Part shown: positions 3,738-51,120 of the stretch, in pieces
Numbering within the stretch: the stretch's first letter is position 1
Layout: each line of letters begins with the position of its first letter
NCBI GenBank assembly: GCA_001781035.1
Contig: MFKK01000034.1
Span: 1-52,633, forward strand
Reading direction: 5' to 3'
From: Candidatus Jorgensenbacteria bacterium RIFCSPLOWO2_01_FULL_45_25b
GTDB lineage: Bacteria > Patescibacteriota > Minisyncoccia > UBA6257 > GWB1-50-10
Length of the DNA stretch: 52,633 bases
Position numbers and translations under genes: made by a program
Notes under the pieces: model-generated
What the model was told of the DNA's origin: nothing
Database searches by the model: none
What the model saw: the letters and a program-made list of their open reading frames with translations, nothing else

Positions 3738-5192
3738 ATGACTAAAAAACACGTACATTTTGTGGGGGTTGGAGGCATAGGAATGAGCTCTCTTGCCCGA
3801 TGGTATTTGGCTCAAAATTGGGCTGTTTCGGGGTCTGACCTCTCCCCCTCTGAAATTACCAAAGAGCTTGAAAAGGAGGGCGTACGGGTCAAAATTGGGC
3901 ACAATTCCTCAAATTTGCCTCAAAAATTGAATGTTTTGGTGTATAGCAACGCTCTTCCGCAGAATACCCCTGAAATTGAGGGGGCGCGGAAATTGGGGGC
4001 TTCTGTTGTGAGCTATTCCGAGGCGTTGGGCGCTATTGCCAAAACATATACGACGCTTGCGGTTGCGGGGTCGCATGGAAAGAGCACGACGACCGCGCTT
4101 TTAGGTTTGTGTCTTCTTTCGGGCGGTTTTGACCCAACCGTTATTGTCGGAACGAAGGTGAAAGAGTTCGGCGGGAAAAATTTTCGTTTTGGAGGAGGCA
4201 AGTTTTTTGCGCTTGAGGCGGATGAGTATAAGGGAGCGTTTTTTCAATATGTTCCAACCTCTCTTATTATCACGAACATTGATAAGGAGCATTTGGATTT
4301 TTACAAGACGTTCGCGAACGTGAAGAGGGCGTTTTTGAGGTTTCTTGGGCAGGCGGTGCCGGGTGGGAAGTTTGTTTTCAATAGAGACGATGCTGTTTTG
4401 TGGGGATTACGGGCGCAGATTTTGCGTATCGCGAAAACGAAGCATTCGGAGATTCTTTGGTATTCGCTTCACTCCCCCATGGCGAAGAAGATTGAGCGAG
4501 TGTTGCGAATTCCCGGCAGGCACAATGTTTCAAACGCGCTCGCGGTTTATACGCTTGCCCGCGCGCTTGGCGTATTGGAGAGACGGATTTTTTCTGTCTT
4601 CCGAACATTTTCCGGTACGTGGAGGAGGATGGAGTACTGTGGCGATCTAAGGATCGCCACCGCGGATGAGCGCGGACTTGTACGCGGAAAAACGCGGAAA
4701 GAAACAAATGTTGAGGTGTACGATGATTACGCGCATCATCCGACGGAAATAAAGGCGACACTCTCTGCTTTTAAGCAATCCCCGTTAGAAGCAAAGCTTC
4801 TAACGGGGCAAGCCGCGAACGAACGCAAAAAGCGGAAGATTGTGTGCGTGTTTCAGCCTCATCAGGCGCATCGATTAAAATCGCTTTTTAAGGAGTTTGT
4901 TGATTCATTTCAAGATGCGGACGGACTTATTCTTCTTCCAACGTATCAGGTTCCTGGTCGGGATATTGCTTTGGACAAGCGATATTCATCCGAGGCGCTC
5001 GCGAAAGCAATCATCAGAAAGTATCCCCGAAAGCGTGTGTTGTATCTTGAAGACCCAAAAAGGCTGAAAGAGGAGATTTTCAATATGTTGCGCGGACTCC
5101 CCTCTTCGGACGGAGTTTTGGTTATGATGGGAGCGGGAGACATTTTTCAATTAACTTCGGAGTTGATTAAAAAAAGAATCTCTAATATCTAA
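3738..5192 (+). CDS. murC: UDP-N-acetylmuramate--L-alanine ligase
   Basis: Motifs 'HFVGVGGIGMS', 'GSHGKSTT', 'DDYAHHPTEI' and 'VFQPH' are present. The last codons and the stop lie inside a heptamer-repeat element. Confidence 0.9.
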   Translation: MTKKHVHFVGVGGIGMSSLARWYLAQNWAVSGSDLSPSEITKELEKEGVRVKIGHNSSNLPQKLNVLVYSNALPQNTPEIEGARKLGASVVSYSEALGAIAKTYTTLAVAGSHGKSTTTALLGLCLLSGGFDPTVIVGTKVKEFGGKNFRFGGGKFFALEADEYKGAFFQYVPTSLIITNIDKEHLDFYKTFANVKRAFLRFLGQAVPGGKFVFNRDDAVLWGLRAQILRIAKTKHSEILWYSLHSPMAKKIERVLRIPGRHNVSNALAVYTLARALGVLERRIFSVFRTFSGTWRRMEYCGDLRIATADERGLVRGKTRKETNVEVYDDYAHHPTEIKATLSAFKQSPLEAKLLTGQAANERKKRKIVCVFQPHQAHRLKSLFKEFVDSFQDADGLILLPTYQVPGRDIALDKRYSSEALAKAIIRKYPRKRVLYLEDPKRLKEEIFNMLRGLPSSDGVLVMMGAGDIFQLTSELIKKRISNI

Positions 5193-5324
5193 TATCTAAT
5201 TTCTAAATCCTAAACAATTTCAAAATATTAATCTCAAAAACGTAGTTTGATAGGCTCATTATAAAGTTTTGAATTTTGACATTTGAGATTGTTTAGAAAT
5301 TGGGGTTTAGAAATTAGAGATTTT
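5176..5324. repeat. AATTTCT-family heptamer-repeat hairpin element filling the murC / nuclease-gene spacer
   Basis: The left arm is 'aatctctaatatctaatatctaatttctaaatcctaaacaatttcaaaat'. The right arm is 'attttgacatttgagattgtttagaaattggggtttagaaattagagatt', an imperfect inverted repeat of the left. Confidence 0.8.
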
Positions 5325-6468: not shown

Positions 6469-7221
6469 CTAGAGAGTCCATGAGAGCGCGTCTTGCGCTC
6501 TAATCATGGAGGATTGGATTTCTCCTCCGCAGAAACGGAAGAGGTGGTCTTTTATGAGATTCGCCGATCCCAGTATCGCTTCATCCGTGATTGCCAGACT
6601 TGTCGCTTCGCAGAAAAGCGCGATGTCTTGAGAACTCTCCGTGATTTTCGCCGTGTCGCTGTCTTTGTAGTTCCATCGGCGCGTGAGCACTTTTTTGCGG
6701 TCGGCGTACACCACCTCTCCTTTTTGTGTCGTTTCAGGCTCGCCACCGCCCAGCGGAAGGAATTGTTCTTCTCCCTCGCTGAATCGGAGAGTAATGTCGT
6801 CCTCTATTTGCGACAGGTCATAACCGCCTACCGGCAGGAACCATTCCAGTTCCGCGAGCAGATAGCAGTTCACCACCACATTGATGATGGGGGCGCTGTT
6901 TCCACGGACGATGCGCCGTAGAAGCGCTTCCGCGGTTGGTCGATGATCTTTCGGGTTCACTCCGAAACTGCGGTAGGTTTCCCGCCAAGCAAGCACGGTT
7001 GGATGCGTGTTGACGTCTTCGGGCGAGTATTGCGCTCGAAACTCATTCTCCATCTTCGCTTTGAGCGCGGATAGTTCTGGGTTTTCGCGCGCGTTCTTAA
7101 TACCTCGCGCGATTACGACGCCAATGCGGAGCGCCGGATACTTCTCGGCGACTTCCTTTTGGATTGAGAAATGGAGCTTGTTGTTTATAATTGCAGTTTT
7201 TGGGCAATAAGGGCGGCACAA
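6469..7221 (-). CDS. B3/B4 (PheT-like tRNA-binding) domain protein; start uncertain
   Basis: The homologous part begins near 'KLHFSIQKEVAEKYPALRIGVV'. No ATG or GTG lies upstream of it, so I took the TTG at 7221. ATT/ATA at 7191/7188 are alternatives. The long ORF-track N-terminus (to 7443) overlaps the upstream kinase gene and is not credible. Confidence 0.55.
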   Translation of the reverse strand: MCRPYCPKTAIINNKLHFSIQKEVAEKYPALRIGVVIARGIKNARENPELSALKAKMENEFRAQYSPEDVNTHPTVLAWRETYRSFGVNPKDHRPTAEALLRRIVRGNSAPIINVVVNCYLLAELEWFLPVGGYDLSQIEDDITLRFSEGEEQFLPLGGGEPETTQKGEVVYADRKKVLTRRWNYKDSDTAKITESSQDIALFCEATSLAITDEAILGSANLIKDHLFRFCGGEIQSSMIRAQDALSWTL

Positions 7222-7724
7222 TCTTTTGGAGGAAGGTTGGAATTGTCTATGATTGTCGCGGGACGAGACGCAGACGCCTTTGCATTCGGCTGTTCCAAAA
7301 ATTCCTGAAGCTCTTCTTCTGTTGAAATTTTTGTATGAAGGAGGCGGGAGGGTTCTTTGATTCTTTTTACCAGTTCGTCCATAGAACATTGAAGTTCCAC
7401 CAGATGAATCGCGCCGTTGTGTGTTTCCGCGCAAGCAACACATTCTTTGATAAATTCTTCCGCGCCGGAACTGCCACCCGTGAAGGTTATAATCATCCCC
7501 TTCAGTTTTGTTTTTAAAACGCCGTTTAGGAGGTCAATTCGGAAGCCCTTTTCCACCCCTTTTCCTTCAGGAAATTCTTTCGGAATAAATTTTTGTACGA
7601 TATCCAGAACGAGATGATTGTTAAGAAGAGGGAGCCCTGTTAATTTTTCCAACTCCTCCCCTACCGTTTGCTTTCCCACTCCCGGCAAGCCGTAGAGAAG
7701 GATGATTGTTGTTTTTGTATCCAT
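7185..7724 (-). CDS. P-loop NTPase / small-molecule kinase-like protein
   Basis: The Walker A motif 'GLPGVGKQT' lies at the N-terminus. The size of ~180 aa fits AAA_33 / shikimate-kinase-like proteins. Confidence 0.6.
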   Translation of the reverse strand: MDTKTTIILLYGLPGVGKQTVGEELEKLTGLPLLNNHLVLDIVQKFIPKEFPEGKGVEKGFRIDLLNGVLKTKLKGMIITFTGGSSGAEEFIKECVACAETHNGAIHLVELQCSMDELVKRIKEPSRLLHTKISTEEELQEFLEQPNAKASASRPATIIDNSNLPPKDCAALIAQKLQL

Positions 7725-9445: not shown

Positions 9446-9982
9446 TTAAACGATTCCGATTTCTTCCAGAAACGCCTGATAATCTTTTAGCGTTTCTTTC
9501 GCGTCTTCATCGCTTATTTCAAATCCGGATGTGTTTACGATGTCATTTTTTGTTCTATGCGCCCGCCAGAGCCTTTCCAATGTTCTTACGTTTTCTTTGT
9601 CAATTTGTTCTATGCGGTCTGCCATGTGTTCCCCTTTTAATTCCAAGAGCTGGAGGATTTCGTCCGTGAACTCATCCGCCTGAATGATTGCTTGCAGAAG
9701 CGAATCCGGAGGAGAGCTTTCCGATTTTTTCATGAGCGTTTCCCATCGGTGTTTTAGAGCCTTATTATTTTCCCCTTCCGTTATTGTTTTTTTACCGGGC
9801 TTATAATCGTAGGTAAATTGAGACTTGTATTTCCATGCTTTTGGAAGCACGAATACAAAACCAGCAACAAGAAAAAAAGTGATGGAAAGAAACAGATATT
9901 TTATACCGTTGTAAACACTCCACCACGGTATTCCGAAGAAGGCTTCTTTGAATGTTTGTATGAAGAAGGATATGTAGCTCAT
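9446..9982 (-). CDS. Membrane-anchored hypothetical protein (one N-terminal TM, helical C-terminal domain)
   Basis: A hydrophobic segment 'IKYLFLSITFFLVAGFVFVLP' is present. The gene starts 6 nt after the upstream membrane-protein gene ends, which suggests translational linkage. Confidence 0.6.
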   Translation of the reverse strand: MSYISFFIQTFKEAFFGIPWWSVYNGIKYLFLSITFFLVAGFVFVLPKAWKYKSQFTYDYKPGKKTITEGENNKALKHRWETLMKKSESSPPDSLLQAIIQADEFTDEILQLLELKGEHMADRIEQIDKENVRTLERLWRAHRTKNDIVNTSGFEISDEDAKETLKDYQAFLEEIGIV

Positions 9983-9987
9983 GCTTT

Positions 9988-11385
9988 TTATTGATATTTC
10001 GCTATGTCTTCCTCATCTCCGAATATCGGAAGCCCGGATTGAGCCCCCGCTCTTCTTGATTCAACTCTTCGGAGGTGGGGCGCGGTCATAACGAGAATGG
10101 TTGGCGGATGAAAGAGAGAGGCAATCGCTTCGGTGTTTAAAATTGAAGTTTTCATCATGAAGTTCTGATTAAAAAAATGGGACGTGAGAAGCTTTCCCCA
10201 GAAGGTGTCTTTCGGCATCTCTCTTGTAAAGTAGTTCATTAGAAGGCGCTGTTTTCGGAATTGAACGCGTGTTTTTGGAAAGATATACGGGAATGCCCAG
10301 AGCTTTGCCCTGGTACTCATCGGTTCATTTAATATGAAGCCGTTTCTTCCCGCATCGCTGTACTGATTGAAGGCGCCGCGGATTCCCCTTCTCGCGTAGC
10401 TGTCGTAGAAGCCTTCCTGCGGGGCGATGTAGAGAAATCTTATGACGGTGTTAAAGGCGACCTTCCCGATATTATTCTCCATTTCCGTGAGCTTTTCCGT
10501 CTCTCCCGGAGAGCGAATGGAGATGCTTGTTTTCGCCTCTCCTTCCGGCGTAATAATCTGGCGCTTCGCGGTGTCTTCCTTGAACTTATCAATTATTTTT
10601 TGAGCGGGTTCCACCCAATCGGCGCTTGCCGGACAGATGAGAATTTGAACTCCCGCTATTTCGTTTTGTTTTATCTTCCCGAATACTTCAAGGAAATTTC
10701 CCATCGGGTCAACCCGCTTTTCTTCTCCCGGGTCGTCCAGAAAATGTTGATATGTTTTTATGGGGTAGACGGGATCTTTTTTTAATATCATGTCCGAGCC
10801 CCACATTTCATTTCCCGCCTCGTATATTTCCTTTGTGGTTTGAGGAAGGTGTTTCATGTAGTCTTCGCTTTTGACGAGTTCAATTTCTGGATAGTGGGCG
10901 AAGAAGGCCGCCTCCAGGAGTGTTTTCGCTTTTTCATATCCGCGGAAGTAAAAGTGTACCTCTCCCCCAAAGCTTATGATTTCCAAAGACATGTAGCGGG
11001 TTACCTCTCCGTCCCAGTAGATTTCTTTCGGATCGTCCGCCGTGTTTCGCAGGGAGTGAAGGCTCGCGAGCACCTGCTCCATCGCTTGCGGGCCTTTTTC
11101 GGTTTCTCGGGGAATGCGGATTTCATATACGATGTATTTTGTGTCGGCTTGAAAAATTTCTCTTCTCCAGAAGAGCCAGATGGAGAGGAAGTTTTTTATC
11201 ACAAACAAAAATAACCAGAACCACCAGGTTAGTTCAATGAATTTCATAAAGGCATTTTCAATTCCCAGTGGGAGAAAGAAAAAGATTCCCGCGAAACCCG
11301 CAATAAAGAGAATAATCCACACCTCCTCTTTTTTAAAAAGCTCTTCACCGGCATCCAGAATTATCTCTATCAGTTTTTTAAGCAT
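9988..11385 (-). CDS. Membrane protein (two N-terminal TM helices plus a large soluble domain), hypothetical
   Basis: Hydrophobic segments 'IILFIAGFAGIFFFLPLGI' and 'WWFWLFLFVIKNFLSIWLFW' are present. The coding frame is long and clean. I recognised no family motif. Confidence 0.6.
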   Translation of the reverse strand: MLKKLIEIILDAGEELFKKEEVWIILFIAGFAGIFFFLPLGIENAFMKFIELTWWFWLFLFVIKNFLSIWLFWRREIFQADTKYIVYEIRIPRETEKGPQAMEQVLASLHSLRNTADDPKEIYWDGEVTRYMSLEIISFGGEVHFYFRGYEKAKTLLEAAFFAHYPEIELVKSEDYMKHLPQTTKEIYEAGNEMWGSDMILKKDPVYPIKTYQHFLDDPGEEKRVDPMGNFLEVFGKIKQNEIAGVQILICPASADWVEPAQKIIDKFKEDTAKRQIITPEGEAKTSISIRSPGETEKLTEMENNIGKVAFNTVIRFLYIAPQEGFYDSYARRGIRGAFNQYSDAGRNGFILNEPMSTRAKLWAFPYIFPKTRVQFRKQRLLMNYFTREMPKDTFWGKLLTSHFFNQNFMMKTSILNTEAIASLFHPPTILVMTAPHLRRVESRRAGAQSGLPIFGDEEDIAKYQ

Positions 11386-20425: not shown

Positions 20426-20434
20426 AATTGACAA

Positions 20435-20496
20435 TCTCTAAATCCTAATTTCTAAATTCTAAACAATCTCAAAATTCAAATAATCAAAAAACATTT
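20435..20496. repeat. AATTTCT-family half element filling the frr / rseP spacer
   Basis: The sequence 'caatctctaaatcctaatttctaaattctaaacaatctcaaaattcaaataatcaaaaaac' shows the same heptamers plus the 'AAACAAT.TCAAAA.TCAAAT' core as the other copies. Confidence 0.75.
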
Positions 20497-25356: not shown

Positions 25357-25545
25357 AAGTATTTAATCTCTAATCTCTAATTTCTAATCTCTAAATAATC
25401 TCAAAACTCAAATATCAAATGTTTAAATACTTTTACGTTTTAATTTCTAATTTCTAATTCCTAATTTCTAAACAATATAAAAACTCAAATATCAAATTAA
25501 AACATTAGGTTCCTGCGCGACTTGAGGTTCCCCCCCCGTGCCTTT
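25357..25545. repeat. Two tandem AATTTCT-family elements filling the rplQ / rplM spacer
   Basis: 'aatctctaatctctaatttctaatctctaaataatctcaaaactcaaatatcaaat' is followed by 'taatttctaatttctaattcctaatttctaaacaatataaaaactcaaatatcaaat'. Confidence 0.8.
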
Positions 25546-39927: not shown

Positions 39928-40430
39928 GGGCGAGTATATCAGGCAATAGCTCCGCTTTTGCGGAGAGGAAAGTCCGGACACTCGGCCTTATGCGCGGCAC
40001 AAGGAAATTCTAATTTCTAATCTCTAAACCGACCGAAATTCGCAGTCAGTTTAGAATTTAAGATATTAGATATTAGGATTTTCTCGTGCTGTGCGTGAGG
40101 CAAGGGTAGCGGGTAATGCCCGTCGTCCGCGAGGATAGAGGTGCGAACAGAGACGTCTGGGCGCGAAAGCGCCTAGAGAGCCCAATCCTAAGCTAGATGG
40201 CTTAATTCCGCCATAGGGAGAAAAAAGCGGAAGTGAAACGGTCCCGACGTTTCAGTCGGGACTCCGACCTCGTAAGAGTGTCGGATGCTAAATCCTTACT
40301 TGAGTGCAAGGTCGCGCCAGCAGTGCTCCGCACTGGTTGGAGAACCGCTTGATCTTGAGGGCAACCGAGAGACCAGATAAATTATTGCCGCTCTTTTGAG
40401 TACAGAATCCGGCTTACGATATACTCGCCC
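39928..40430 (+). ncRNA. rnpB: RNase P RNA (bacterial type A-like) with insertions
   Basis: P1 pairs 'GGGCGAGUAUAUC' with 'GAUAUACUCGCCC'. The P4 strands are 'GAGGAAAGUCCGGAC' and 'ACAGAAUCCGGCUUA'. A terminator 'CCCCCUUCGGGGGUUUUGUUUU' follows. At ~503 nt it is longer than the usual 350-400 nt. Confidence 0.9.
40003..40083. repeat. AATTTCT-family hairpin inserted inside RNase P RNA
   Basis: 'ggaaattctaatttctaatctctaaac ... gtttagaatttaagatattagatattaggattttc' sits on the stem GCACAAG/CUCGUGC, shortly 3' of the P4 5' strand. Confidence 0.8.
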
Positions 40431-40447
40431 CCTTCGGGGGTTTTGTT

Positions 40448-46037: not shown

Positions 46038-46450
46038 TAAAATGTTTTGTTGAAAGTAAACTTTTTAAGGTAGAAGTTTATCCTCTGCGTGAGGTATAAA
46101 AGTGTATTGCTCGAATAAGCAAGGTGGGATTTATTAGTACTCCTCGGCTCCATCCCTTGCGGGACTTCCACCTAGAGCCTATCAACCTGGTAGTCTTCCA
46201 GGAATCCATGATGCATTATCTTGGGAGGGGCTTCGTGCTTAGATGCCTTCAGCGCTTATCCCTTCCGAACATAGCTACCCAGCGATTCACCTGGTGGCAA
46301 AGCTGGTAGACCAGAGGTTCGTTCAACCCGGTCCTCTCGTACTAGGGTCAACTTCCCTCAAGCATCGTAACGCCGACAGTAGATAGAGACCAACCTGTCT
46401 CACGACGGTTTGAACCCAGCTCGCGTACCACTTTAATTGGCGAACAGCCA

Positions 46451-46483
<33 letters not shown>

Positions 46484-46497
46484 GTGAGCCGACATCG

Positions 46498-47331
46498 CAT
46501 CTTCTCTATTATTACTAATAGCGTGGACTATATCTTCATCCTTTTTATCTTAAAAAGGAGCTGACGTGTTAGCTGGAAACCATGTTTCCAACTCTGCCTC
46601 GTTGCAACCCAATGCATAAGGCAAGTCTCTACGGGGTTATAACTCAATTTTATATCTCATTGAAGGAATGATTTCTTTATCTAGTATTTTTCGCAATATA
46701 GCAAGTGAAGATTTTAGAAAACGCAACCGATAATACTGTTTATCTTTATTAAGAGTCGCTTTTAGATTGAGCTTTTGAAGTGCTCGCACTAACTTTTTCT
46801 GATCTTGAATGCTAAATTGTTGAGTATTCAGATATATGTCATTGGTTTTACAACGACTTCCATCATCCATGAACCAGACTGCTAAACTTGTTGGATCTAG
46901 GGTAAGGTTTGCAGGAATTACCTTTTTCGTTTTTCTATAAAAGAGTTGATGCAGAGCGGTTAGCTCTGATAACTGCTTTGAGTAGAAACGATAGGCAATT
47001 CTTGTTCCATTACTTTTCCGCATTTTGGGCGGAGAACCGGAAATATTTTTTAATATTTTATATTTCCAATCAACATATTCTTTTTGGGCAAAAGAATGAT
47101 TGATTTCCAAAAGAGCATGTTTTCTTTTTGGAATGATTCTTAGATAACCATCTCCCAAAAGCGTTCCAACAATCAATGATTTTTGTTGTTGAGTTAAACT
47201 TCCCACGGTATTGTCCATATAATGATTCTATCATTTCACTGTATGGAGTTCACCGTTATAAGTCAGATTTTTCTTTGATCGCATCACAGCGATCGGGAAT
47301 GAGATTACTCTCATTGCACCCCAATGTGTTA
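46498..47331 (-). mobile_element. Intron (group I-like) in 23S domain V carrying a LAGLIDADG ORF
   Basis: On the plus strand the conserved string 'gagccgacatcg|aggtgcc' is interrupted by ~834 nt. Joining the flanks restores the 'GGCACCUCGAUGUCGGCUC' consensus, at about E. coli position 2500. Confidence 0.8.
46637..47218 (-). CDS. LAGLIDADG homing endonuclease (double-motif)
   Basis: Both motifs are present, 'LIVGTLLGDGYL' and 'LAVWFMDDGS'. The gene lies wholly within the 23S intervening sequence. Confidence 0.9.
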   Translation of the reverse strand: MDNTVGSLTQQQKSLIVGTLLGDGYLRIIPKRKHALLEINHSFAQKEYVDWKYKILKNISGSPPKMRKSNGTRIAYRFYSKQLSELTALHQLFYRKTKKVIPANLTLDPTSLAVWFMDDGSRCKTNDIYLNTQQFSIQDQKKLVRALQKLNLKATLNKDKQYYRLRFLKSSLAILRKILDKEIIPSMRYKIEL

Positions 47332-47952
47332 AGGTGCCGAGCTCCGTCGTCGATGTGGACTCTCGGACGGAACCAGCCTGTTATCCCCGGAGTAGCTTTT
47401 ATCCGTTATCTCCGACCTTCCTATAAAGATTCGTCGGGTCGCTAAGCTCTGCTTTCGCACCTGCGCGACTTGTATGTCTTGCAGTTAAGCTGGCTTTTGC
47501 CTTTACGCGTCCAGCCCGATTTCCATCCGGGCTAAGCCAACCTTAATAGACTCCTCCGTTACTTTTTGGGAGGAATCCGCCCCAGATAAACTGCCCACCA
47601 GGCACTGTCTCCACGGCGTTTTGCGCCGCAGGTTAGATATTAACAACTAAAAGATGGGTATTTCACTGACGGCTCCATCCCATCCGAAAACAGGACTTCA
47701 AAGCCTCCCCACTATGCTACGCATCCAGACATTAATACCAATACCAAGCTACAGTAAAGCTTCCGGGGTCTTTTCGTCTTACTGTCGGTATCCCGCGTCT
47801 TCACGGGAATCGCATTTTCATCGGGCTCCTCGTTGAGACAGTTCTCCAGTCGTTACACCTTTCGTGCGCTCCGGAACTTACCCGGAAAGGAATTGCGCTA
47901 CCTTAGAACGGTTATAGTTACCGCTGACATTGACGAGGGCTTCGGACAGTAA

Positions 47953-48160
47953 GCCGCACCTCACTACGGTTCGGTGCGTACAGAAATAAATAGAAATTGA
48001 TAGAAATATGCTTCGCGAAATTAACCCCACCCCTCCCTCCCCTAAGACTTAGGGGAGGGAGACGGAGGGAGAGGTTAGTCTCTATTGAATTTCTATGAAT
48101 TTCGTCCCGAATAAAGTGAGGGACATATTTCTGTCGCATCGAACGATAGTGAGATGCGAC
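47953..48160. other. ~190-nt expansion segment at the tip of 23S helix 68 (E. coli ~1870)
   Basis: The conserved flanks 'GGUAAC..CCCUCGUC' and 'GGUUAACGAUGG' are separated by ~215 nt here, against ~28 nt in E. coli. The insert is a long imperfect hairpin with the apical stem 'cccctccctcccctaagacttaggggagggag' and the inverted arms 'acagaaata..' / '..tatttctgt'. Confidence 0.75.
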
Positions 48161-48830
48161 CTCCATCGTTAACCTTCTCGCATCGGTCAGGTGTCACCCC
48201 CTATACATCCTCTTACGAGTTCGCAGGGAGCTGTGTTTTTGTTAAACAGTCGCCAGAGAAACTTTCGCTGCGGGCGTGCTTACGCGCGCCAGGCCTTATC
48301 CCGAAGTTACGGCCGCTTTTTTGCCGAGTTCCTTAACGAGGACTCACCCGTTCCCCTTGGGCTTCTCGCCCTATCCACCTGTGGCGGTTTCCGGTACGGA
48401 TTCCATACTTCAACCTTAGAGGTTTTTCTTGAACGCGCGCTCTATCAACTTGCGTCGACACGTATGCCAACACTTGCCTCTACTCTGGAGTTTGCGACTA
48501 AACGCAGAGACGCGGATTTGCCTACGCCTCACTCTCGAGTCAAGGATGCCAAACCATTAAGACACTTAATGTACTGCGCGTTGTCCCCCCATCGGACTAT
48601 GAAATACGGAAGGGCTGGAATATTAACCAGCTGTCCATCAGCTTCGGCTTTCGCCATTGCCTTAGGGCCGCCTCACCCTCCGCCGATTCGCGTTGCGGAG
48701 GAAACCTTGGATTTTCGGGGAGCCGGTTTTTCACCGACTTTGTGATTACTCATGCCAGCATTCTCTCTTCCTAACGCTCCAGTCGCCCTCACGGATCAAC
48801 CTTCAGCGCATTAGGAATGCTCTCCTACCA

Positions 48831-49008
48831 CGCCTCGCGCTTTGCGCGAGGAAATCCTAAGCTCTAAATTCTAAATCCTAAACAATATCAAAACTCAAAT
48901 GACCGAAACTCAAAACATTTTGTTTTAAGTGTTTGGATTTTGAATTTAAAATTTGTTTAGAGTTTAGAGATTAGAATTTAGAATTTCCTTGTGCAAAGCA
49001 CAAGACAT
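48831..49008. repeat. Intervening sequence at 23S helix 45 built from an AATTTCT-family hairpin
   Basis: Between the conserved 'CCGAAG' and 'GGUAGGAGAGC' blocks lie three hairpins: CUUGUGC-UUU-GCACAAG, a ~140-nt heptamer-repeat hairpin, and CCUCGCGC-AAA-GCGCGAGG. Confidence 0.8.
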
Positions 49009-49684
49009 TCGCATCTTCGGTACCTTGCTTAGCCCCGGTAAATTTTCGGCGCCATCATCCTCGAATAGTGAGTTGTTACACACTCTTTAAAGGATGGCTA
49101 CCTCTGAGCCAACCTCCTATCTGTTTATGGATAATGACCACCTTTCACACTTAGCAACTCCGATACCCTTGCGGAGATCGGAGTCCCGACTTCACGTCGG
49201 GAGAATTTAGGGACCTTAGATGGCGATCTGGGCTCTTCCCCTCTCGACCACGGAGCTTAGCCCCCGCAGTCTGACTGCTAATGAACAACTCATGGTATTC
49301 GGAGTTTGATTGATCGTCCGAGCTTGCGCCCAGTGACGATCATCCAGTGCTCTACCCCCACGAGTCTATTTAATTAACGCTAGCCCGAAAGCTATTTCGG
49401 AGAGAACCAGCTATTACCAAGTTCGATTAGTTTTTCGCTCCTTACCCCAATTCATCCGAGAGTTTTGCACGGCTCACCGGTTCGGACCTTCATTCGATTT
49501 TACTCGAACTTCATCCTGATCAGGGCAAGCTCACCTGGTTTCGGGTCTTACACGTACTGCTTAATCGCCCTATTAAGACTCGCTTTCGCTACGCCTCCTC
49601 CCGCTTGGCGGGATTAGACTTGCAACACATGCAAACTCGCTGGCTCATTCTTCAATAGGCACGCCGTCACTCGCCGTTGCACAG

Positions 49685-49846
49685 CAGCGGAATTTCTAAT
49701 TTCTAATCTCTAATTTCTAAACAAACCCAAATGATAGAATGACTAATGACTAAAACAATTTAAGTTTAGACATTACACATTTTGACATTAGAAATTTATT
49801 AGATATTAGTAATTAGGAATTAGTTATTCCGATGCTGCGCATCGGT
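49685..49846. repeat. Intervening sequence at 23S helix 25, hairpin cassette copy 1
   Basis: The cassette reads 'gcacagcagcgg aatttctaatttctaatctctaatttctaaac ... gatagaatgactaatgactaaaacaattta ... attagaaatttattagatattagtaattaggaatt ... ccgatgctgcgc'. Confidence 0.85.
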
Positions 49847-50202
49847 TGAGCTCCGGCTCTTTGTAAGTAAGTGGTTTCAGATACTATTTCATCGCCCTCA
49901 CCGGGCTGCTTTTCACCTTTCCCTCACGGTACTGGTTCACTATCGATCACCAAATGTATTTAGCCTTACCAGATAGTACTGGCAGATTCCCTCAAGGTTA
50001 TCTTGGCCTTGAGGTACTCAAGAACAAGAACGATTGGTCACTTTGTTTTCGCCTACGAGGCTTTCACTCACTATGGCTGTCCTTTCCAGAACATTTGACT
50101 AACAAAGTGATTTGTAACCAATTACCAAATAAACTTCCGTAGCTCCGGAAATTTCCGAAGCTTCAGAAGTTTTTTGGAATGTTCTCGCCTTACAACCCCC
50201 GC

Positions 50203-50374
50203 CGCTGCACAGCAGCGGAATTTCTAATCTCTAATTTCTAATCTCTAATTTCTAAATAAATCCGAATGATAGAATGACTAATGACTAAAACAATTTACGT
50301 TTAGACATTTAAGCATTTTAACATTAGAAATTTATTAGATATTAGTAATTAGAAATTCCGATGCTGTGCATCGA
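50203..50374. repeat. Hairpin cassette copy 2 in 23S domain I (E. coli ~270-280)
   Basis: It has the same base stem, heptamer arms and central 'gatagaatgactaatgactaaaacaattta' core as 49685-49846. On the rRNA strand it lies just 3' of 'GUAGCGGCGAGCGAA..CAGCCC'. Confidence 0.85.
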
Positions 50375-50474
50375 CAGGTTTGGGCTGTTCCCTTTTCGCT
50401 CGCCGCTACTTGGGGAATACAAATTTGTCTCTTTTCCACCAGGTACTTAGATGTTTCAGTTCCCTGGGTGCGCT

Positions 50475-50631
50475 CCACTGCGTAGCAGCGGAATTTCTAA
50501 TTTCTAATATCTAATTTCTAAATAAATCCGAATGATAGAATGACTAATGACTAAAACAATTTACGTTTAGACATTAGAAATTTATTAGATATTAGTAATT
50601 AGGAATTAGTTATTCCGATGCTACGCACTGG
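50475..50631. repeat. Hairpin cassette copy 3 in 23S domain I (E. coli ~140)
   Basis: It is the same cassette, lying between 'CCGAAUGGGAAAACCC..' and 'GGGAACUGAAACAUCUAAGUA' on the rRNA strand. Confidence 0.85.
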
Positions 50632-51120
50632 TTACCGCGTTTTACACGGCAGGGTTTTCCCATTCGGAAATCTCCGGATCAAAGGTTGCTACACACCTCC
50701 CCGAAGCTTATCGCAGTTACGCCACGTCCTTCATCGCCATTTGGTGTCAAGGCATCCACCACCTACCCTTAACTTGCTTACATGAGCAATTTCACTTTTA
50801 TCTTACATATATGATATGCAAGAAACTTCTACCTTAGAAAGTTTACTTTCTTAACTGCCTATTTCGCCTGCTTGCGGGGCGAAATGAGGCTATGAAGTTT
50901 TCAAAGTTCAAGAAAGCATCCATACCGTCGGAGCGCCAATGTTGAGGTCGGCTTGTTTCGGCCGCAACATTGAGGCTCTTTTTCTGTCTTTGTTTCGCGT
51001 GTGAAGAAATAAAAATCCCGCCAGGTCTTGGCGGGCCGACACATCAATAATATAGGGCTTTCTTCACCCGTGTCTCCCACCTTGATATGTATTGGCTTTT
51101 TTCATTAGCAGTAAGTACCA

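Follow-up and report, generated by a model that had tools for sequence, protein, structure and literature searches.

An insert in helix 45 of a Patescibacteria 23S rRNA gene belongs to a dispersed palindromic repeat family and probably acts as an intervening sequence

The 23S ribosomal RNA (rRNA) gene of Candidatus Jorgensenbacteria bacterium RIFCSPLOWO2_01_FULL_45_25b is interrupted in helix 45 by an insert bounded by two short, GC-rich palindromes. The stretch of DNA analyzed here, called the window, comprises 52,633 nucleotides of contig MFKK01000034.1. The locus raises the question of what kind of sequence the insert is, where it came from, and what becomes of it when the rRNA gene is transcribed. 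The insert is likely to be a non-autonomous palindromic foldback repeat that acts as an intervening sequence (IVS), and it is probably removed by an RNase III-type cut within its terminal palindromes, which are referred to below as clamps. The parts of the element are as follows.

48833-49005, minus strand: whole helix-45 element, clamp to clamp, 173 nt (delimited by Rfam placement, nhmmer and the rod fold)
48987-49005, minus strand: 5' end clamp in RNA sense, U-CUUGUGC-UUU-GCACAAG-G, the 'T/A version' (from the sequence; the clamp recurs elsewhere)
48955-48986, minus strand: RNA 5' arm, heptamers of the AAAUUCU, AAUCUCU and AAACUCU types (Tandem Repeats Finder, period 7)
48878-48900, plus strand, antisense to the rRNA: 23-nt family core CTAAACAATATCAAAACTCAAAT (exact fit to the pattern)
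48852-48882, minus strand: RNA 3' arm, heptamers that complement the 5' arm with G.U pairs (Tandem Repeats Finder, period 7, and the fold)
48833-48851, minus strand: 3' end clamp in RNA sense, C-CUCGCGC-AAA-GCGCGAG-G, the 'C/G version' (from the sequence)

The host gene occupies positions 46115-50779 on the minus strand (Rfam RF02541, 2155.9 bits) and is 4665 nt long compared to the 2925 positions of the model. The local Rfam alignment of the 23S gene places the insert in the hairpin at model positions 1206-1226. This hairpin is flanked by the conserved motifs ...CCGAAG... and GGUAGGAGAGC, which make it helix 45 in the Rfam alignment, in agreement with an earlier note on this DNA that had put the insert at the classical helix-45 position. 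Extra sequence at the tip of a variable 23S helix, 25 or 45, is a feature of IVSs, and the insert has it.

In the RNA, the 5' clamp is followed by the 5' heptamer arm, a centre of ~70 nt, the complementary arm and the 3' clamp. The centre is asymmetric and conserved, with CTAAACAATATCAAAAYTCAAAT... facing ...ATTTGAATTTGTTTAG. The two palindromes, CUUGUGC-UUU-GCACAAG at 48988-49004 and CCUCGCGC-AAA-GCGCGAGG at 48833-51, both on the minus strand, enclose ~136 nt made up of the inverted heptamer arms and the centre. The earlier note had described two short hairpins with a long one between them. The palindromes are present in the sequence as described, but the predicted minimum-energy fold of the RNA is one continuous rod of ~85 bp (-82.6 kcal/mol, z -9.45), in which the two short palindromes pair with each other and the AAA triplet of the 3' clamp is complementary to the UUU of the 5' clamp. 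The rod is 5.4 kcal/mol better than a fold forced into two local hairpins, and it is preferred over the two-hairpin fold in 89 of 90 sister copies. A long stem formed by complementary ends, a second feature of IVSs, is thus found here in the predicted fold. The left arm quoted in the earlier note is likewise present, but it was read on the plus strand and is antisense to the rRNA. [quoted passage not shown]

Membership of the insert in a repeat family was assessed first within the window. The pattern CTAAACAATNTCAAAAYTCAAAT, with up to three mismatches allowed, has six matches in the window (at 5210, 5274, 20459, 25391, 25468 and 48878), compared to zero expected. When the heptamer arms are masked, the centre of the insert (48879-48958) still matches sequences at 25469 (36.8 bits), 25392 (35.4 bits) and 20460 (32.6 bits) in a blast search, and none of 400 composition-matched controls reached three matches as strong. 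The earlier note had named the masking of the low-complexity heptamers as the test that could refute it, and the alignment to the spacer copies at 20460, 25392 and 25469 survives it, beating all 400 controls. The note had matched the insert to three spacer regions; two of them, 20435-20496 and 25357-25545, hold with the arms masked, whereas 5176-5324 does not reach significance. An independent line of evidence is a family profile built from 73 palindromic copies in other genomes and none from this genome. In an nhmmer search with this profile the helix-45 insert ranks first in the window (48847-48991, 100.5 bits, E 1.2e-30) and aligns to profile positions 5-151 of 155. There are eight profile matches in total, and ranks 3-5 are three further 23S inserts at 40-50 bits. 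The other members in the window are listed below.

5181-5324: full palindromic copy without clamps that fills the spacer between two plus-strand genes (nhmmer 58.1 bits, E 1.3e-17)
20430-20489, plus strand: one-armed (half) copy in the spacer between two minus-strand genes (nhmmer 36.0 bits; exact core at 20459; arms-masked blast 32.6 bits)
25363-25429 and 25439-25524, plus strand: two successive half copies in one spacer (nhmmer 33.5 and 35.7 bits; arms-masked blast 35.4 and 36.8 bits)
49680-49843, minus strand: helix-25 insert of 'family B' (Rfam insertion at model position 583; nhmmer 49.8 bits)
50214-50370, minus strand: family B insert in the domain I hairpin at Rfam positions 274-296 (nhmmer 40.5 bits)
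50484-50622, minus strand: family B insert in the hairpin at Rfam positions 151-178, helix 10 by position (nhmmer 40.1 bits)
39986-40100, plus strand: sister copy inside the RNase P RNA gene at 39931-40431 (Rfam RF00010, 94.9 bits)

Because the masked-arm matches and the independent profile agree, the proposal that a single repeat family occupies both mRNA spacers and rRNA is supported. The 23S gene holds four members of the family, not one, and a fifth copy, with helix-45 clamps, is in the RNase P RNA. The three family B inserts have clamps of the type CCGATGC-NNN-GCATCGG and CCGCTGC-NNN-GCAACGG; those of the helix-25 insert are CCGAUGC-GCA-GCAUCGG and CCGCUGC-UGU-GCAACGG. The three are nearly identical, save for gains and losses of heptamer units and one 16-nt block, which suggests recent spread or homogenization inside one gene.

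The RNase P RNA copy appears in the Rfam model as a 156-nt insertion in the hairpin after P7. Its clamps, CCUUAUGC-GCG-GCACAAGG and UCUCGUGC-UGU-GCGUGAGG, are the same as those in helix 45, and its left 33 nt are those of the helix-45 copy save for one nucleotide, while the centre is shortened. The two copies are 88% identical over 43 nt by blast, and the fold of the RNase P copy has a z of -8.5. The RNase P RNA falls just short of the Rfam gathering score of 100, and the insert is presumably the reason. Excision of this copy in the manner of the rRNA copies, if it takes place, would leave an RNase P RNA in two pieces.

The family is not specific to this genome and spans many phyla. A scan for the core over one genome per species found it in at least 116 stretches, which come from classes of Patescibacteria and from Deltaproteobacteria, Bacteroidota, Planctomycetota, Chloroflexota, Nitrospirota, Ignavibacteria and others. 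The common architecture is a run of AAATYCT-type heptamers, the core, a short centre, ATTTGAATTTGTTTAG and the complementary heptamers. For 87 of 119 copies there is an inverted core no more than 1.5 kb away, and since the gap between them is mostly 20-60 nt, most copies have no room for an ORF. Some relatives do carry one: ORFs that score above the Pfam cutoff for PF05635 are found between the same core and arms in three stretches (L010, L018 and L020), and further PF05635 ORFs between other inverted heptamers in three more (L041, L060 and L225). The helix-45 copy is an ORF-less relative of the classical helix-45 IVS, because the ORF-bearing relatives carry the PF05635 gene. The features that mark the family across phyla, namely inverted heptamer arms, the exact 23-nt core and a full-length profile match, are all found in the insert. 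A preferred orientation of the intergenic copies relative to the neighboring genes was considered and rejected (31 versus 26).

Two observations concern the wider family. In L225, the PF05635 ORF (95.5 bits) is located inside 16S helix 6, between inverted arrays of ACAACAA-type heptamers, and a clamped element without an ORF is found farther down the same 16S gene. In L002, L010, L018 and L046, which are unrelated genomes, a GC-rich palindrome, CCTGCC...GGCAGG, is nested in the left heptamer arm and looks like a second, tiny repeat that targets such arms.

The short hairpins at either end are the element's own GC-rich termini, 17-19 nt each, and not host sequence. The same clamps bound an element elsewhere in the 23S gene of another Patescibacteria genome (L056), and that element can be aligned over its whole length with the helix-45 copy. 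In metagenomes, the left clamp together with the first part of the arm was found on at least 119 contigs with at least 115 distinct copies, of a median length of 167 nt. Placement in 23S genes was by blast to the 23S gene of the window, and in 16S genes by universal primer motifs, with the following result.

Clamped metagenome copies in 23S genes: 80
Clamped metagenome copies in 16S genes: 15
Clamped metagenome copies without placement, several with recognizable rRNA flanks: 20

By their flanking motifs the sites recur, and include helices 25, 45 and 63, a domain I hairpin, 16S helix 6 and others; helix 45 holds at least 19 clamped copies, and 43 copies are 'other' in these motif-based counts. 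None of the ~115 genomic copies of the clamp-less intergenic type has clamps. The possibility that clamped rRNA copies serve as PF05635 carriers was rejected, as none of the 115 contains an ORF.

The clamps have a constant polarity. All 95 placed copies have the CTTGTGC/GCACAAG clamp on the 5' side and the CTCGCGC/GCGCGAG clamp on the 3' side in RNA sense; the opposite polarity would place CTCGCGCNNNGCGCGAGGAAAT on the 5' side in rRNA sense. The polarity is also the same on the 23S and RNase P RNA genes of the window, which lie on opposite DNA strands. The orientation of the inner core relative to the clamps is mixed, 32 versus 26. Two explanations of the fixed polarity were rejected. The stability of the rod does not account for it, for the number of G.U pairs and A.C mismatches is the same in either orientation, nor does a founder effect of the whole element, for the inner core points both ways.

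The central triplets of the two clamps covary. They are of several kinds (there are 17 left types) yet are complementary in 83 of 90 metagenome copies, and compensatory changes at the three triplet positions number 29, 12 and 44 sequences (among 69 distinct clamp sequences). The long-range pairing retains two A.C mismatches, although either clamp taken alone is a perfect palindrome, a count that is biased because the right clamps were located partly via their hairpin. Separately, the metagenome contig L231 has at 10134-10172, in its 23S gene, a solo family B clamp pair, CCGATGC-TTT-GCATCGG-TATT-CCGCTGC-AGA-GCAGCG, with no heptamer arms between. This pair is either an empty shell or a scar after loss of the inner element. 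Because the core points either way and such a solo pair exists, the clamps and the inner palindrome behave as separable modules.

A more far-reaching reading of this separability is speculative, and we regard it as unlikely as a whole. It holds that the element is a two-module device, in which a polar clamp shell would provide a precise RNase III-type cut site around a flip-flopping inner palindrome armed with heptamers. Whatever the shell contains would be cleanly removed from rRNA or RNase P RNA, and the inner module would be the part in common with mRNA spacers and PF05635 cassettes. Because the polarity follows the transcript and not the DNA strand, the shell may be selected, or even integrated, at the RNA level. 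One route of such integration would be cleavage run in reverse, followed by reverse transcription. If this were true, the short rRNA insertions of the Candidate Phyla Radiation (CPR, Patescibacteria) that are listed as 'uncharacterized' would in large part belong to a single mobile family that excises itself.

The fate of clamped elements in RNA can be followed in L231, whose arrangement is the same in three assemblies (L138, L222 and L231) and which has three such elements.

L231, 9347-9534: clamped element in helix 25
L231, 10233-10404: clamped element in helix 45
L231, 10946-11143: clamped element in helix 63

Groundwater metatranscriptomes contain up to 59% of the words of the L231 stretch. 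In seven RNA runs from several studies, the depth is zero over all three elements and no contig bridges any of them, while their rRNA flanks are assembled at 0-1 mismatches. The ends of the RNA contigs cluster at the clamps, with 3' ends at 10944, 10946 and 10952 and 5' ends at 9531, 10399, 10403, 10404 and 10410. In one run, Illumina adaptor sequence abuts positions 10403 and 10944, which are therefore true RNA ends. In the left clamp the innermost end follows position 7, and in the right clamp it precedes position 13' (right ends are at 13'/14'). This offset is suggestive of the stagger characteristic of RNase III-family enzymes, whose cuts leave a 2-nt 3' overhang, and the outer ends look like trimming. 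The sister copies in L231 are removed from the rRNA, and the pieces are left unjoined. The idea that mature fragments keep the clamps as terminal hairpins that protect them was rejected: the clamps are removed, as shown by RNA ends located at them or within them. A further observation in the same contig is that some contigs in four of the RNA runs skip a 250-nt stretch of the 23S gene (L231:9568-9817), whereas others run through it; this may be a spliced insertion, or the skipping contigs may come from a relative without that stretch.

By analogy with L231, the following course may be proposed for the helix-45 element. It would be transcribed as part of the 23S rRNA precursor and fold into the rod of ~85 bp, which extends helix 45. 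A double-strand-specific nuclease of the RNase III family would then cleave within the duplex formed by the clamps. The predicted primary cuts in this copy lie between 48998 and 48997 and between 48839 and 48838. The entire insert would be discarded, the ends trimmed, and two pieces of 23S rRNA left unjoined. We infer these steps for the helix-45 copy; for sister copies elsewhere, RNA data show removal without rejoining.

Could the rod instead stay in the mature 23S rRNA? It would then be a bacterial analogue of the eukaryotic expansion segments, possibly a platform for protein binding. The insert is located at the solvent-exposed tip of a helix and has an independent predicted fold, as such a segment might, and this organism is absent from the available RNA runs. 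We nevertheless regard retention as improbable. Sister copies with the same clamps, one of them in helix 45 itself, have zero coverage in seven RNA runs in which their flanks are covered. According to published summaries, insertions in CPR rRNA are removed from transcripts, and the short ORF-less insertions at these sites are 'probably' intervening sequences (PMC11270868). Furthermore, at least five rods of 130-200 nt on one ribosome would seem implausible.

Excision by splicing, with religation of the exons by a group I, group II or bulge-helix-bulge type of intron, is less probable still. A true group I intron is present elsewhere in the same 23S gene, and contigs made by an assembler can miss rare joined forms. 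However, there is no Rfam intron match within 48831-49008, the seven RNA runs yield no contig in which the flanks of a sister element are joined, and the contigs of one run end in sequencing adaptors at the element boundaries. Neither the ribozyme fold nor the ligated exons that characterize group I and group II introns are found, as judged from Rfam and from the RNA contigs of the sister copies.

The distribution of the copies speaks for mobility. The element has defined, conserved ends in three kinds of RNA gene, at many sites that are unrelated to each other. Copies at different sites of the same contig (median 0.71, top 0.83) resemble each other somewhat more than do copies at the same site in different organisms (0.65). 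Identity between the window and L231 is 80% for the helix-45 copies but only 78.7% for the alignable blocks of the two 23S genes. A relative with flanks ~90-95% identical has a plain helix-45 tip of 29 nt; no empty site was found in the DNA runs at 95% identity or above. Terminal inverted repeats and many dispersed copies, the features of miniature transposable elements with inverted repeats (MITEs) and foldback elements, are both seen here, with eight matches in the window, at least 116 stretches with the core and at least 115 clamped copies. The sole cargo seen in the family is PF05635, which is not known to have transposase activity.

Possible turnover between close strains is seen in L236, a contig 99.7% identical to the window over 2 kb upstream of the 23S gene and into its 5' end. 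At the helix-10 site (50480-50640 in the window), it has at 7190-7369 a different element, with the short clamps CCGTGC-TTT-GCACGG and GCGC-AGA-GCGC. In a second contig, L240 (2307-2988), the encoded pcm protein is identical and the 23S leader 99.7% identical to that of the window. From about nt 130 of the 23S gene onward the identity to the window's 23S is only 77%, and there is no helix-10 insert. L240 is either a chimeric assembly or a recombinant rRNA gene.

Several results weigh against the interpretation of the insert as a mobile repeat that is excised as an IVS. The match at 5211, in the copy at 5176-5324, amounts to 25.4 bits and is not significant without the arms, and the family profile is partly driven by low-complexity heptamers (bias ~21 bits). 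A 23S stretch specific for this organism retrieves no RNA run. The runs that share words with the insert region contain only relatives at 90-95% identity, and the small SOLiD metatranscriptomes of the same study cover conserved rRNA blocks only. No RNA run contains this organism, and we infer the excision of this copy by analogy. The organism of L056 is likewise absent from four groundwater RNA runs, where one contig represents a relative without the insert. The RNA ends in L231 are ends of assembler contigs from different elements and runs, not pile-ups of reads, and for this reason the RNase III geometry is only suggestive. L236 may represent replacement of one element by another between near-identical strains, or it may be an assembly chimera, a possibility raised by the contig ending 16 nt past the variant element. 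No direct repeat that could be a target-site duplication is evident by eye in the flanks of the clamped metagenome copies. No transposase, autonomous partner or donor-recipient pair came up, although no whole-genome search for them was made. Because a target duplication, a transposase and an autonomous partner are all missing, the word 'mobile' is drawn from the distribution alone.

There is little to recommend a local origin, in which slippage of heptamers and fold-back copying of helix 45 would have produced the insert, and its likeness to the spacer repeats would extend only to low-complexity units. Heptamer arrays of many unit types do occur everywhere in this genome, and the number of heptamer units differs between copies, as slippage would have it. 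However, different sites, genes and genomes have the clamps and the non-repetitive core in conserved form, the match is significant with the arms masked, and the same clamps are found in RNase P RNA and in other helices. The least probable explanation is an assembly artefact, in which a repeat was wrongly joined to the rRNA gene when the metagenome was assembled: mis-assembly is a classic problem of rRNA genes and of repeats, and several contigs of this organism break inside inserts, but zero-mismatch contigs from four DNA runs (X1-X4) span both junctions of the insert at the genome's own depth of ~20x, two independent assemblies (L237 and L239) show no difference from the window at those junctions that they extend to, and more than 100 analogous insertions occur in independent assemblies.

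The reading of the insert as a palindromic repeat acting as an IVS can be compared with known systems. Intervening sequences in bacterial 23S rRNA have been known since 1990. The classical IVSs in helices 25 and 45 of Salmonella, Leptospira and Coxiella burnetii (PMC4990558) share with the present element the helix and the long stem formed by complementary ends. Removal without religation and with RNase III-like geometry is a property that they have in common with its sister copies. Heptamer repeats (GACAGAT in Coxiella) are a further likeness, as is the PF05635/S23p ORF, which is found in relatives of the helix-45 element. In Coxiella, the helix-45 IVS encodes a protein of the PF05635 family with tandem heptamers upstream of it, and it is excised by RNase III (PMC4990558). 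Thus the functional likeness to a classical IVS consists of the site and the stem for this copy and of excision without religation for its sister copies. What sets the element apart is the lack of an ORF, the conserved GC-rich end clamps and membership in a dispersed repeat family, which is also found in protein-gene spacers, 16S rRNA and RNase P RNA across many phyla. No link between IVSs and a dispersed family of this kind was found in the searchable literature. Nor was any description of the family, its core or its clamps, including by a full-text search for strings of the core and arms.

The closest published counterparts are the short ORF-less insertion sequences at sites 23IS2 and 23IS4 of CPR rRNA (Tsurumaki et al. 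2024, PMC11270868, citing Brown et al. 2015), which come from the same kind of organism and the same sites, are shorter than 200 bp, and are presumed, as here, to be intervening sequences removed by RNase III. That survey left the short insertions 'uncharacterized', and the words 'repeat' and 'hairpin' are absent from its text (PMC11270868). In the present analysis, by comparison, such insertions come together in a single sequence family, whose ends are defined, whose polarity is fixed and which has relatives outside rRNA.

Small dispersed palindromes are known from several other bacteria. The Correia elements of Neisseria, the Rickettsia palindromic elements and the repetitive extragenic palindromes and their paired forms (REP/REPIN) are likewise small, multi-copy and ORF-less, with terminal inverted repeats that form hairpins in transcripts. 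Correia hairpins are substrates of RNase III, and Rickettsia palindromic elements are located inside genes. The present family differs from these in that neither a target duplication nor a cognate transposase was seen, its arms are heptamer arrays, its core is shared across phyla, and one of its subfamilies is adapted to structured RNAs. Heptanucleotide repeats, such as the short tandemly repeated repetitive (STRR) sequences of cyanobacteria, TAACTGA of Beggiatoaceae (PMC4679880) and the Geobacter sites (PMC2700814), resemble the arms in being intergenic tandem units of 7 nt in variable number, and the Geobacter sites have sometimes been drawn as hairpins (PMC2700814). However, they are described as simple arrays or regulator sites, with no non-repeat core, no clamps and no presence in rRNA. 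A MITE with a long hairpin in P9 of the dsrA group I intron of Thiomargarita (PMC4853749) is likewise a hairpin repeat with dispersed copies, and a structured RNA tolerates it in one of its peripheral helices. Its host is an intron and not mature rRNA, its sequence is unrelated, and no excision by an endonuclease has been described (PMC4853749).

The 'functionality and origin' of IVSs have been said to 'remain unclear' (PMC4990558). The insert is tied by its sequence to repeats in mRNA spacers, to PF05635 cassettes in several phyla and to a clamp-ended subfamily in 16S, 23S and RNase P RNA. In this way IVSs would gain a traceable origin as mobile repeat DNA. The question of origin is now testable, because the element has defined ends, a consensus and a fixed polarity, and natural samples allow its removal from RNA to be measured. 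The helix-45 copy and the three family B inserts together predict that the 23S rRNA of this organism is built from several pieces. They also serve as a warning that, in these bacteria, such repeats will break assemblies and surveys based on rRNA.

Besides the helix-45 element and the three family B hairpins, the 23S gene contains two other inserts, and a 5S rRNA gene is located downstream of it in the window.

46637-47218: LAGLIDADG ORF of the group I intron in the 23S gene (LAGLIDADG_2, 145.6 bits)
47953-48160, minus strand: helix-68 insert

The helix-68 insert gives no match to the family profile. It is of another design, with a G/C-rich apical stem and other flanking repeats.

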